A stretch of DNA of 64,000 nt from Patescibacteria group bacterium (GTDB taxonomy: Bacteria > Patescibacteriota > Minisyncoccia > Ryanbacterales > GWA2-47-10b): contig JBBTSE010000007.1 of the NCBI GenBank assembly GCA_038064855.1, forward strand, positions 18,079 to 82,078. Reading direction: 5' to 3'. How positions within the stretch are numbered: the first letter of the stretch is position 1; every line of letters starts with the position of its first letter. The notes beneath the pieces were generated by a model. That model had not been told where the DNA came from, did not search any database, and saw nothing but the letters and a program-made list of their open reading frames with translations. Shown here one piece after another: positions 28,720 to 31,163 of the stretch. Both the position numbers and the translations under genes were made by a program.

Positions 28720-28858
28720 GTGAGTCGCGCTGTGCGCGACGATCAGGGTGCGAGGCCGATGGTGAGCGGGTACGCGAGGGGTTCGGAGAACGGGAGAGCC
28801 ACTTCGGAGATCTGAAGCGTATCTTGGAAGGTGTTTGAGTAGCTTCTACACCCCGCGC

Positions 28859-28990
28859 TAGTAAGACTGGAAACGGCAGTCCGCGTTGTCGGCGAGGAAG
28901 CCGATGAGGAAGGCGAGTAGGATCGCCGTGTGGTTGAGCATCGCCCAGATGTCCATCTTGCCGGTCGGTCGCTTTGCGTTCGAGTTCATG
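28859..28990 (-). CDS. small membrane protein, 43 aa (MNSNAKRPTGKMDIWAMLNHTAILLAFLIGFLADNADCRFQSY)
   Basis: SD GGAAAGGA 9 nt upstream of ATG. Third gene of the TA operon. Below the ORF-track size cutoff. Confidence 0.4.
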
Positions 28991-29087: not shown

Positions 29088-29351
29088 TTATCGTTTTCGG
29101 TAGGTGGTAGAAGCACGTCGCTCGATTGCGGTAATATCGACAAGACAGTCTTTCGTATAGAGGTCAAAAAGAATACGCCAAGCGCCAACCCTGCGCCGAT
29201 AGCTTGTCTCTAATCCTTTGAGCTTTATCGTATCACCAGCGAGCGGATCCGCATACATGTCTCGGATCGCATGTTCCATATGCTCGCGCTCTTTTTGTGG
29301 AGCTTTAGCGATATTTTTTGCCGCTCTTTTGCGAAGCGAGATATTCCACAT
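29088..29351 (-). CDS. type II toxin, RelE/ParE family
   Basis: LKGLETSYRRRVGAWRILFDLYTKDCLVDITAIERR matches the RelE core (yRlRvGdYRiiY...v.il.ig.R). Confidence 0.7.
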   Translation of the reverse strand: MWNISLRKRAAKNIAKAPQKEREHMEHAIRDMYADPLAGDTIKLKGLETSYRRRVGAWRILFDLYTKDCLVDITAIERRASTTYRKR

Positions 29352-29619
29352 GAGCAAAGAAGTCATCAATAGTCATGGACTCTGATGCGCGGCCTTTTTT
29401 GATCGCCTGCAATTCGGTAGATGTTGGCGTGCGGGTAGAGATAGGGCGCAATGGAATAGTTGACGCTTTACCAGATTCCGCAAGTATAAGCTCTTCGAGA
29501 TATGAAGAGCGGCTTCGCTTCCATACTTTTGCGCGTTCTGTGACAAGGCGGCTCATCGCTGGTTTAAGCGCGAAGCTGGTAGGTCTCCGTTTTTCGGAAG
29601 TTTCTTTTATTTTAGGCAT
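29305..29619 (-). CDS. type II antitoxin (ribbon-helix-helix-like N-terminus)
   Basis: Immediately upstream of and overlapping the toxin. RRPTSFALKPAMSRLVTERAKVW. Confidence 0.55.
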   Translation of the reverse strand: MPKIKETSEKRRPTSFALKPAMSRLVTERAKVWKRSRSSYLEELILAESGKASTIPLRPISTRTPTSTELQAIKKGRASESMTIDDFFAHVEYLASQKSGKKYR

Positions 29620-29675
29620 ATATACTAATTCCTAGTGCAAAGTTAGTGTATCATATATCTTATTGTGCTGTCTAT

Positions 29676-29715
29676 ATAAAAAATCCCCCCGAGCACTTGC
29701 TAGTGCTGCGGGGGT
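29676..29715 (-). terminator. rho-independent terminator ending the lexA-divergent small-protein operon
   Basis: CCCCCCGAGCACT-tgct-AGTGCTGCGGGGG. TTTTTT on the minus strand. Confidence 0.65.
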
Positions 29716-29861
29716 TTGGTGCGCCCGAGGCGCTCTTCGCGTTCTTTGTACTCTTGGTCTGCCAAGACTTCGAGGTCTTTGGCGGCTTGTTTGATGCGTC
29801 GGCCAAGGCCAACGGCGAGGAGTGCCATTACGGTGCCGCCTAGGATGATCTTCACGATCAT
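29700..29861 (-). CDS. micro-protein C, 53 aa single-TM (MIVKIILGGTVMALLAVGLGRRIKQAAKDLEVLADQEYKEREERLGRTKPPQH)
   Basis: SD GGCGGAG. ATG overlaps the stop of micro-protein B (TGATG). GC-rich. Confidence 0.5.
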   Translation of the reverse strand: MIVKIILGGTVMALLAVGLGRRIKQAAKDLEVLADQEYKEREERLGRTKPPQH

Positions 29862-29974
29862 CAGTCTACTCCGCCAGAGCGCTTGCGATCTTGTCTATTT
29901 GAAAGAAGCGCGCCCACGAGCAGTAGCACCAGCGCCACCGCGACGACGACACCAGCCCACATTGCCACGGTCAT
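29861..29974 (-). CDS. micro-protein B, 37 aa single-TM (MTVAMWAGVVVAVALVLLLVGALLSNRQDRKRSGGVD)
   Basis: SD AAGGAGGAG. ATG overlaps the stop of A (TGATG). Confidence 0.5.
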   Translation of the reverse strand: MTVAMWAGVVVAVALVLLLVGALLSNRQDRKRSGGVD

Positions 29975-30099
29975 CACTCCTCCTTGTTGTACTCCCAGAT
30001 CTCTTCGTTTGATTGTTCGATGGCGTTGGCTACGAAGTAGCCGAGGCCAAACAGTGACGCACCACAGACCGCAACGAATCCAAGAACTTGCAACAACAC
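29974..30099 (-). CDS. micro-protein A, 41 aa single-TM ((V)LLQVLGFVAVCGASLFGLGYFVANAIEQSNEEIWEYNKEE)
   Basis: GTG start 7 nt after SD GGAGG. Follows the 112-aa gene after a 36-nt gap. Confidence 0.45.
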   Translation of the reverse strand: MLLQVLGFVAVCGASLFGLGYFVANAIEQSNEEIWEYNKEE

Positions 30100-30135
30100 G
30101 ATACTTCCTCCAAGGTTCTGAGTTCAGAAAATATC

Positions 30136-30474
30136 TTACCTGTTTTTTACTCTTTTGTCAATATAAAAAATGACCCCGCGGATGTGTCTCCGTAGGGTCT
30201 GGATGCTGGGCGTCTCGCGCGTAGGGCGCACGAGCGCGGGTGCGTTTGATACGCGGTAGAGCGTCATCGAGATCATCACCGCCAGCAAGATAAGTAGCGC
30301 TATCACCACCCACAGCATGCGGTTGTTGCTAGTCTGCGCTTTGGCGATCTTTGCCAGCGCGCTTTGTCGCCGCTCACTGATGGGTATGACGCGTCGCGTA
30401 TGTGTCTCGGGTACGCCGTAGGTGCGGTTGGGGTCGCGTCGCTCTGGATCAAGTCTAATTAGTTTCGCAGACAT
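30136..30474 (-). CDS. single-TM Arg-rich membrane protein divergent from lexA; candidate SOS cell-division inhibitor analog
   Basis: SD GGAGG 5 nt before ATG. Basic N-terminal 60 aa, one TM, short C-tail. Topology matches ChiZ/DivS-type proteins. Confidence 0.55.
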   Translation of the reverse strand: MSAKLIRLDPERRDPNRTYGVPETHTRRVIPISERRQSALAKIAKAQTSNNRMLWVVIALLILLAVMISMTLYRVSNAPALVRPTRETPSIQTLRRHIRGVIFYIDKRVKNR

Positions 30475-30565
30475 GGCCACCTCCGTTTTCACCAAATCAT
30501 TTTTTGCTTATTTTGTAAAGATATTTTCGTTGTCCACAGCTTTTTGGCGCCAAGCACTTGTGTGG

Positions 30566-30579
30566 TGAACGAGCGTTCA
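30566..30579. promoter_or_regulatory. LexA operator (Cheo-box type TGAAC-N4-GTTCA)
   Basis: tGAACgagcGTTCa sits 15 nt upstream of the lexA start, in the divergent intergenic region. Confidence 0.65.
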
Positions 30580-30593
30580 CCTATGATATATGC

Positions 30594-31163
30594 ATGAGCA
30601 TCGAGCAATACAAATCAAAAATCATGAGTTTTTATGAGGGCAATCGGCGCATGCCGAGCTACGGCGAGATCGCGACCCTCCTCGGGTTCAAATCAAAAAA
30701 CGCCGCATCAAAAGTGATTGATAAATTGATTGATATGGGTGTGCTCGACAAAGACTCGCAAGGCCGCTTGGTGCCAACTCGCATGCTTGGCGAAGTACGC
30801 ATGCTCGGTGTGGTAGAGGCCGGTATTCCATCGCTCGCCGAAGAAGCCGCCGAGATGATCAGCATCGATCAGCTTTTGATTAGAAATAGAGATCGCACCT
30901 ATGTACTGACCGTAAAAGGCGATTCGATGATTGATGCGGGTATACGCGATGGTGATCTGGTGGTAGCCGAGCATGGCAAGCAAGCAAAGGAAGGGGATAT
31001 CGTGATAGCGGAGATTGATGGCGGGTGGACTATGAAATATTTACGAAAGAAAAACGGCACTACCTATCTCGAACCTGCCAATAGAAATTTTAAACCAATA
31101 TTTGCAGAACAGTCACTCAACATAGGCGCGGTCGTCACCGGCATTATCAGAAAATATCGTTAA
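30594..31163 (+). CDS. lexA: LexA repressor
   Basis: N-terminal wHTH, Ala-Gly cleavage region VEAG, S24 Ser motif KGDSM and Lys in MKYLRKK. Confidence 0.9.
   Translation: MSIEQYKSKIMSFYEGNRRMPSYGEIATLLGFKSKNAASKVIDKLIDMGVLDKDSQGRLVPTRMLGEVRMLGVVEAGIPSLAEEAAEMISIDQLLIRNRDRTYVLTVKGDSMIDAGIRDGDLVVAEHGKQAKEGDIVIAEIDGGWTMKYLRKKNGTTYLEPANRNFKPIFAEQSLNIGAVVTGIIRKYR

Follow-up and report, generated by a model that had tools for sequence, protein, structure and literature searches.

How could three open reading frames (ORFs) that together span barely 400 nucleotides matter to a bacterium, and are they genes at all? This question is raised by a 64,000-nucleotide stretch of the genome of a Patescibacteria group bacterium (contig JBBTSE010000007.1, positions 18,079 to 82,078; from here on, the window), where the minus strand close to lexA carries three consecutive micro-ORFs, which we call A, B and C. 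Small membrane proteins are systematically missed by annotation, and functions are known for only a handful of them. A first reading of the same DNA, referred to here as the original prediction, had proposed that A, B and C encode translationally coupled micro-proteins of 41, 37 and 53 aa with a single transmembrane helix each. We put at roughly 0.55 the probability that they are real, coupled genes forming an independent unit, whose co-produced acidic and basic bitopic micro-proteins assemble in the membrane.

The predicted structure of the train was borne out in all its parts. Each of the three ORFs encodes one hydrophobic helix, the best 18-residue window of each having a mean Kyte-Doolittle hydropathy of 2.1-3.0, and the three hydrophobic ORFs of the region all lie on the sense strand, with none on the antisense strand. 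This pattern was not reproduced by any of 2000 dinucleotide-preserving shuffles, 1986 of which contained no hydrophobic ORF, 14 contained one and none contained more. Each ORF also has its own Shine-Dalgarno (SD) motif, namely GGAGG for A (30111-30107, 7 nt ahead of the start), AAGGAGGAG for B (4 nt ahead of the ATG, a short spacing) and GGAG for C (7 nt ahead of the start). Such motifs are uncommon in the window, where they precede 11 of the 47 long ORFs (about a quarter) and occur in 5% of random 12-nt windows. Both junctions, A/B and B/C, read TGATG, which makes the stop and start codons overlap by 1 nt, and the KEE tail of A doubles as the SD of B. Finally, the train ends in a terminator hairpin (T2, Table 1): its loop contains the stop codon of C, a run of six U follows, and the last codons of C (PPQH) make up the left arm. 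The same stem lies after the stop codon in one of the related lineages described below (L014).

The three predicted peptides differ in charge. In A the membrane helix is N-terminal and the tail acidic (net charge -5, isoelectric point (pI) 4.1); its conserved core is GLGYFVANAIE, and it includes the stretch IEQSNEEIWEYNK. In B the membrane helix is followed by a basic tail (net +2), while C combines an N-terminal membrane helix, a GRRIK motif and a charged helical tail that includes DLEVLADQEYK (net +3). The basic residues directly after the helices of B and C suggest that the C-termini of both would be cytoplasmic.

Table 1 Features of the micro-ORF train and its surroundings, in window coordinates
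Feature	Position	Strand	Description
ORF A	30099-29974	minus	41 aa, GTG start (39-41 aa by start choice); MLLQVLGFVAVCGASLFGLGYFVANAIEQSNEEIWEYNKEE
ORF B	29974-29861	minus	37 aa, ATG start (38 aa from GTG at 29977); MTVAMWAGVVVAVALVLLLVGALLSNRQDRKRSGGVD
ORF C	29861-29700	minus	53 aa, ATG start; MIVKIILGGTVMALLAVGLGRRIKQAAKDLEVLADQEYKEREERLGRTKPPQH
Promoter P2 (sigma-70-type, predicted)	30161-30133	minus	TTGACA-17 nt-TAAGAT, 10 of 12 consensus matches
Leader	30132-30100	minus	Fold of -3.4 kcal/mol, z = +1.1; 179 of 200 shuffles fold equally well or better
Leader element	30127-30115	minus	CTGAACTCAGAAC; conserved in L007 and L009
Intrinsic terminator T2	29714-29678	minus	Hairpin 29714-29686, -22.6 kcal/mol, z = -5.3; U6 at 29683-29678
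T1, intrinsic-terminator-like hairpin plus U6	30199-30165	minus	-17.5 kcal/mol, z = -5.2
112-aa bitopic membrane protein	30474-30136	minus	Divergent from lexA; context, not an obligate partner
LexA-type palindrome	30564-30581		GGTGAACGAGCGTTCACC; GAAC-N4-GTTC core at 30567-30578, in the spacer between lexA and the 112-aa gene
lexA	30594-31163	plus	189 aa; TIGR00498 at 113.2 bits (cut-off 110.95), Peptidase_S24 at 4e-25

Two further descriptions of the train hold in part. The ORFs had been called hidden, and indeed the first-stage ORF track contained none of them and the NCBI record contains only C (hypothetical protein MEK7630848.1, called at 51 aa); however, all three are present in the ENA and Logan gene calls. 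Since the 112-aa protein encoded immediately upstream carries the consecutive number MEK7630849.1, A and B are unannotated in the NCBI record. The region had also been described as GC-rich compared with its flanks, which is true of the immediate flanks (0.56-0.59 over A to C, against 0.42-0.47) but not of the adjacent 112-aa gene, which is equally GC-rich (0.57-0.61).

To what extent is the train shared by other bacteria? Identical contigs were found in the Hainich groundwater assemblies ENA ERZ1292627 and ERZ1292643, whose record names start with Hain_H51_01um, as well as in the NCBI metagenome-assembled genome. Six contigs (L001-L006) encode exactly these peptides, but at this locus their DNA does not differ from that of the window (100% identity), which makes them of no use for evolutionary tests; the odd gene spacing in L005 turned out to be only a gene-calling difference. 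Informative relatives were first reached via the 112-aa protein, which has two relatives at 65-68% identity whose contigs carry homologous trains (L007/L008 and L009/L010), and variants of LexA from one 90%-identity cluster led to three further contig sets. An exhaustive HMMER search with C over 1.84 billion representatives gave three matches. These include P0008, a more distant C homolog (44-46% identity) that lies inside an over-extended gene call. Another candidate, P0007, a protein of 392 aa with five tandem repeats containing EMLAVGIGRRLREIANIF, matches the helix and GRR region of C (E = 8e-6), and was set aside as probably a spurious low-complexity or repeat match.

The other searches added no further lineage. 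When 5.8 billion proteins were searched by word index with C and A, nothing but self or near-identical sequences came back, two scans of 185,579 GTDB species genomes (with alignments of the 112-aa protein and of ORF A) gave no relatives, nor did two scans of 2.9 million IMG/VR contigs, and a scan of JGI metagenomes found the L009 contig again and nothing else. The 90%-identity clusters of three other neighbouring proteins contained only the window's own genome. Among the curated libraries scanned (Pfam, NCBIfam, PHROGs and PADLOC), no family was matched by A, B or C, nor by B'', m1 or m2, three micro-ORF products of the relatives: the best Pfam matches reached 12-14 bits against cut-offs of 24-25, PADLOC gave none, and the PHROG matches, all sub-threshold, were to unnamed or 'membrane protein' families (E 0.002-0.08), with none for ORF C.

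Evidence that the ORFs are genes comes from a comparison set of five closely related DNA lineages plus one protein-only lineage, examined by Nei-Gojobori analysis with small codon counts. Homologs of A and C in the relatives have about 75-78% DNA identity and open frames, the sole length change within C being an in-frame gap of 6 codons in L009. When the window and L007 are compared over A and C, the annotated frame gives a ratio of non-synonymous to synonymous substitution rates (dN/dS, omega) of 0.35 (Fisher P = 3e-4; 0.32 for A and 0.36 for C taken separately), while the other five frames give 0.57-1.98, with a best P of about 0.05. For B, an omega of 0.14-0.17 was obtained over the first 20 codons (P about 0.002-0.003) at saturated dS, and pooling five module comparisons gives proportions of synonymous and non-synonymous differences of 0.42 and 0.20, respectively (P = 6e-6). 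As controls, omega against L007 is 0.015 for lexA, and it is 0.28-0.36 for the 112-aa gene; the micro-ORFs thus change in amino acid sequence about 17 times as fast as lexA (dN about 0.19 versus 0.011). Since the excess of synonymous change is seen only in the annotated frame, the micro-ORFs are under purifying selection. The check that accompanied the original prediction, namely conservation of the frames together with synonymous-site analysis, therefore came out in its favour, with A and C kept in the relatives.

Within ORF A, 24 nt on the minus strand (30039-30016, TACTTCGTAGCCAACGCCATCGAA, encoding YFVANAIE) are identical in three lineages, synonymous sites included, at a dS of about 0.5. 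The uncorrected P for this invariance is about 0.02, which is not significant after allowing for the choice of window; it may reflect an extra constraint at the nucleotide level or codon bias.

When the trains of the relatives were laid side by side, the five lineages proved to have five different architectures: units of 373-703 nt hold 2-5 ORFs of 24-71 aa, which fall into at least five module types (m1, A, m2, B and C). L007/L008 have A' (40 aa) coupled by a GTGA overlap straight to C' (53 aa, 68% identical to C); in L007 a clean deletion of about 105 nt has taken out B and leaves A and C directly coupled. L009/L010 have five coupled ORFs: m1 (27 aa), A'' (31), m2 (24), B'' (71) and C'' (48, 47% identical to C). 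The L012-L014 contigs have no 112-aa gene, and the train in L014 consists of m1 (32 aa), an m2-like ORF (39 aa) and a 54-aa B/C hybrid that joins the N-terminus of B (MTLAMWVG...) to a C-like tail (...RRASDDLERV...RTEP). Finally, in L015-L021 the 112-aa gene is reduced to about 5 codons plus T1, and the L017 cassette keeps the promoter and terminator around one-helix ORFs of 33, 31 and 27 aa, which are faintly like m1, A and m2.

Two properties persist across this variation. In the window, L007, L009 and L014 alike, the junctions show SDs and stop/start overlaps of 1-4 nt, and every train mixes charges, pairing acidic-tailed m1 or A types (pI about 4) with m2, B or C types that have basic residues right after the helix. 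A narrow clade of groundwater Patescibacteria has in this cassette an accessory module that is lineage-specific and evolves fast, and in which micro-ORFs would have been gained, lost, recombined and resized.

The features around the ORFs strongly support a short mRNA of the train's own, about 450 nt long and predicted to run from P2 to T2. The -35 box of P2, its 17-nt spacing and the pattern TAnnAT are kept in all five lineages while the sequence of the spacer drifts, and the terminator is present in five of five, with equivalent hairpins folding in L007 and L009. Since the hexamers, the spacing and T2 are kept amid variation in the promoter spacer and in most of the interior, the conservation has the signature of a functional promoter and terminator. 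With a promoter this near to consensus and an open leader, expression would be expected to be high, unrepressed and probably constitutive. The stop codon of the 112-aa ORF sits within the -10 box of P2.

The conserved leader element reads CTGAACTTGAAC in L014, after a 1-nt deletion, and is absent from L017, which makes a role as an operator doubtful. For the palindrome TTCTGA-AC-TCAGAA in the leader, which three lineages share, we considered both a repressor operator and a direct-repeat LexA site and rejected it as a conserved operator, given its alteration in L014, its absence from L017 and the lack of enrichment of the motif in the window.

The 112-aa gene is set apart from the train by a second hairpin, T1, which falls entirely within the 112-aa ORF, at the 3' end and about 9 codons ahead of the stop codon. 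Its DNA is almost invariant in the three lineages that have the 112-aa gene (at 1604-1640 in L007, where it has the same fold, and at about 385-420 in L009), and a remnant is left in L017. If T1 terminates transcription, the 112-aa mRNA would have no stop codon; translation across T1 might suppress termination and so give read-through into the micro-ORF train.

What lies on the other side of the 112-aa gene is lexA, and it is this neighbourhood that suggests a function. The LexA-type palindrome in the intervening spacer contains the only GAAC-N4-GTTC of the 64 kb (0.9 expected over the whole window), the form typical of Gram-positive bacteria, and it is conserved in L007, L014 and L017. By eye, it fills the spacer of a putative lexA promoter (TTGTGT-18-TATGAT), and since the -10 box of this promoter ends about 6 nt ahead of the ATG at 30594, the lexA mRNA may be leaderless. 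From the palindrome to the start of the 112-aa gene, neither a scan nor reading by eye revealed a convincing promoter for that gene. Divergent from lexA stands the 112-aa gene in three lineages (the window, L007, L009) and the train itself in L014, where the palindrome lies 45 nt upstream of the -35 box of P2; counting outwards from lexA, the train of the window comes second.

Several other differences between the genomes were seen around the locus. In L017 (3057-3755), and likewise in L015, L016 and L018-L021, a DUF397 gene and the low-GC gene of a 152-aa multi-helix membrane protein lie on the opposite strand between lexA and the cassette, in an insertion that replaces most of the 112-aa gene. 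L007 (1204-1320), L009 (1-95) and L010 (3-128) have an extra one-helix micro-ORF of 38-41 aa between the LexA-type box and the 112-aa gene, followed by a 5-nt gap with an SD and then the 112-aa gene; it is absent from the window. On the far side, directly after the cassette terminator, the window has a 581-bp insertion (29088-29668) relative to L007, L009 and L014, flanked by the 9-bp direct repeat ATATAGACA (29677-29669 and 29087-29079). It contains a 104-aa ORF and an overlapping 93-aa ORF with weak similarity to ParE toxins (Pfam E = 0.048), which are probably a toxin-antitoxin pair. Next to it, the gene of a signal-anchored protein of about 180 aa, intact in L007 and L014, has decayed in this genome to an N-terminal remnant, a 43-aa ORF on the minus strand (28858-28989; 85% identity over 26 aa). 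Besides lexA and the toxin-antitoxin pair, the neighbours of the cassette include genes for an SGNH hydrolase and a peroxiredoxin. Across the whole 64-kb window Rfam gave no match at its gathering threshold, tRNA, rRNA and riboswitch families included.

How might these parts work together? We propose that one mRNA of about 450 nt, made from P2 to T2, carries A, B and C, and that the stop/start overlaps and internal SDs couple their translation. Coupling would yield roughly equimolar amounts of three single-pass micro-proteins, A with its acidic tail and B and C with basic juxtamembrane tails, which would become embedded in the cytoplasmic membrane, where their helices probably form a small hetero-oligomeric assembly. 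The peptides may act as non-toxic modulators of an envelope or cell-division process tied to the DNA-damage response, an idea prompted by the lexA neighbourhood of the cassette and by the adjacent bitopic protein, which in position and architecture fits the SOS division inhibitors of Gram-positive bacteria. This link of the cassette to SOS or cell division is tentative, and on balance we doubt it. Rather unlikely, in our view, is the broader evolutionary scheme in which a fixed frame of promoter, leader and terminator beside lexA holds modules that are born, duplicated, recombined, resized and lost within a short evolutionary time while selection keeps the co-translated mix of acidic-tailed and basic-tailed helices.

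A number of observations weigh against the proposal that A, B and C are coupled genes whose products assemble in the membrane and serve the DNA-damage response. The case for coding comes from DNA comparisons, in which omega is only moderately below 1 (0.3-0.4), rising to 0.7-0.8 for A and C when the window is compared with L009. Some of what is conserved has a role at the nucleotide level too, the KEE of A being also the SD of B and the PPQ of C also the terminator stem. Hetero-oligomerisation we infer from translational coupling and the charge pattern only. As for SOS, no LexA-like site was found at P2, and the LexA-type box overlaps the putative promoter of lexA and lies at least 45 nt upstream of the -35 box of P2, even in L014. 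Moreover, since the five DNA lineages are all close relatives, with LexA at least 90% identical, adjacency to lexA may have been inherited with the gene order and need not mean a functional link, and in L017, where the insertion parts the cassette from lexA, the cassette is retained.

Five other explanations were weighed against this one. An unlikely one, a specific form of the membrane toxins offered by the original prediction, is that the peptides are SOS-linked membrane toxins of the TisB/DinQ type, which follow type I toxin-antitoxin logic and would depolarise the membrane on DNA damage. The peptides of the window would suit this role, being hydrophobic, shorter than 60 aa and made of one helix, with B and C cationic after it; lexA and a LexA-type box are nearby, and the 24-nt invariant stretch in A could be a site of RNA pairing. 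Type I toxins are however kept silent, being tightly repressed by antisense RNA and SD sequestration, and they have a cationic C-terminus (PMC8309996). Here the promoter is near consensus, the leader unstructured and the SDs strong and exposed; a consensus scan of the plus strand over 29678-30161 found no promoter-like site that could drive an antisense RNA (non-consensus promoters being outside the reach of the scan), and the Rfam search was empty. P2 has no LexA box, A and the m1- and A-type modules are strongly anionic (pI about 4), coupled runs of 2-5 ORFs are unlike the type I pattern, and the 24-nt invariance does not withstand correction for the choice of window. Taken together, these features disfavour a membrane toxin.

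Quite unlikely, too, is a second suggestion, in which the train encodes obligate small subunits or regulators of the 112-aa protein within an SOS-induced division-inhibitor complex; the original prediction had likewise offered the micro-proteins as stoichiometric subunits of that protein. In the window, L007 and L009 the gene and the train are same-strand neighbours, their rates of evolution are similar (omega 0.28-0.36), and the 112-aa gene is divergent from lexA, as are yneA, sosA, chiZ and divS. T1 itself, lying inside a translated ORF, could be suppressed by ribosomes so that transcription reads through, as we infer from its position. AlphaFold predicts for the 112-aa protein a disordered N-terminus, helices at 32-76 and 91-110 and no globular fold (predicted local distance difference test score 68, predicted template modelling score 0.30). 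Yet L014, which lacks the 112-aa gene, and L017, which has a remnant of about 5 codons, both retain the train together with its promoter and terminator, and a strong terminator and a separate promoter, T1 and P2, intervene between gene and train. For these reasons an obligate partnership with the 112-aa protein is largely refuted.

There is still less to recommend a multi-peptide antimicrobial, comparable to the leaderless bacteriocins, or other peptides of conflict between cells, although such a role would explain the turnover of modules. Tandem ORFs (2-5, of 24-71 aa) recall the leaderless bacteriocins of 3-4 peptides, and rapid evolution (at the dN given above, compared with lexA), frequent gain and loss of modules and the constitutive expression that would be expected are all in keeping with it. 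But leaderless bacteriocin peptides have a net charge of +4 to +7 and a pI above 10 (PMC6131525), against charges of -5, +2 and +3 here, with the low pI of A; no transporter (ABC transporters included) or immunity-like gene is adjacent, in length and hydropathy the hydrophobic segments match true membrane anchors, and no bacteriocin family of Pfam or NCBIfam is matched.

It is very improbable that A, B and C are not genes, being instead a three-helix gene decayed by frameshifts (each ORF is shifted by 2 nt) or incidental ORFs in a GC-rich non-coding RNA. Three consecutive ORFs in three frames, a GC-rich region with long open antisense frames and homologs confined to a very narrow clade could all be read in this way. 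Against this, purifying selection is specific to the annotated frames, the SDs and overlapping junctions recur in the four lineages named above, B was removed cleanly from L007 with the A-C coupling intact, and a fused multi-helix version exists in no lineage and as no database protein, which together exclude frameshift decay. Even the non-homologous train of L017 consists of three one-helix ORFs, and more than one hydrophobic ORF never arose in the 2000 shuffles. A last idea, which extends the holin-like peptides of the original prediction to holin- or antiholin-like lysis peptides of a prophage remnant, can be dismissed as having next to no chance, since small one-helix proteins with charged C-termini and the weak, sub-threshold PHROG matches stand against a neighbourhood with no endolysin, phage gene or integrase, a chromosomal locus that is syntenic in five lineages, and searches that gave no significant PHROG match and no relative in IMG/VR.

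We return to the reading in which A, B and C are coupled genes for bitopic micro-proteins that are made together and probably assemble in the membrane. What the locus offers is a clean, statistically supported case of three (elsewhere 2-5) coupled one-helix proteins in a group with minimal genomes, in which retained genes are likely to matter. A constant promoter and terminator with rapidly changing micro-ORFs between them is an unusual and easily traceable instance of gene birth, loss and recombination, and if the plasticity of the cassette is what it seems, this would be a natural system for watching membrane micro-proteins originate; we found no earlier description of a fixed promoter/terminator cassette with a rapidly reshuffled train of coupled one-helix ORFs in a limited literature search. 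The position beside lexA, and beside a protein placed like the Gram-positive SOS division inhibitors, hints at a way in which Patescibacteria might tie the envelope or division to DNA damage, and in the literature we found no described SOS division inhibitor in this group. If the set were a DNA-damage-responsive brake on division or the envelope of ultra-small bacteria, it would solve that task in a new and unusually plastic way; if its place beside lexA is inherited gene order only, it would still be a new family of small proteins, of modest general interest.

The general kind to which A, B and C belong, unannotated single-helix small proteins of bacteria, some of them SOS-linked, is well known. 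KdpF, CydX, AcrZ and MgtS, which serve larger membrane complexes as accessory subunits or regulators, are non-toxic single-helix proteins of less than 60 aa, often unannotated and often translationally coupled to their neighbours. They are however usually single genes inside the operon of their partner, whereas here we see a stand-alone cassette of several ORFs whose composition shifts between close relatives. Aureocin A70 and garvicin KS, encoded by 3 or 4 tandem genes for leaderless peptides of 30-34 aa (PMC6131525), resemble the train in layout, but their peptides are amphipathic, with a net charge of +4 to +5 and a pI of about 11, and come with their own transport and immunity genes, in contrast to the anionic A and the membrane anchors found here. 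Closer in size and hydrophobicity to A, B and C are TisB and DinQ of Escherichia coli, LexA-controlled single-helix peptides of the inner membrane (PMC3567139, PMC8145889), and SidA of Caulobacter, for which we follow Modell et al. 2011 as cited elsewhere; all three are peptides of 27-29 aa in the LexA regulon. TisB and DinQ are nevertheless single ORFs controlled by antisense RNA and by structure in the 5' untranslated region, unlike the coupled and in part anionic ORFs of the cassette, with their open leader and strong SDs.

The last comparison is with the SOS division inhibitors YneA, SosA, ChiZ and DivS of Gram-positive bacteria, single-pass membrane proteins that are unrelated in sequence and are recognised by their position divergent from lexA (PMC6851548). 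The lexA-divergent inhibitors have an extracellular C-terminus and, in most cases, a LysM domain, SosA and DivS being without LysM (PMC6851548). The micro-proteins are much smaller (24-71 aa), come in coupled trains of 2-5 from a promoter of their own without a LexA box, have neither LysM nor any other Pfam domain and, to go by the basic residues of B and C, would have their C-termini in the cytoplasm. What they share with this class is small size and one membrane segment, and it is the lexA-divergent position of these inhibitors that the 112-aa protein occupies in the window and the train itself in L014.

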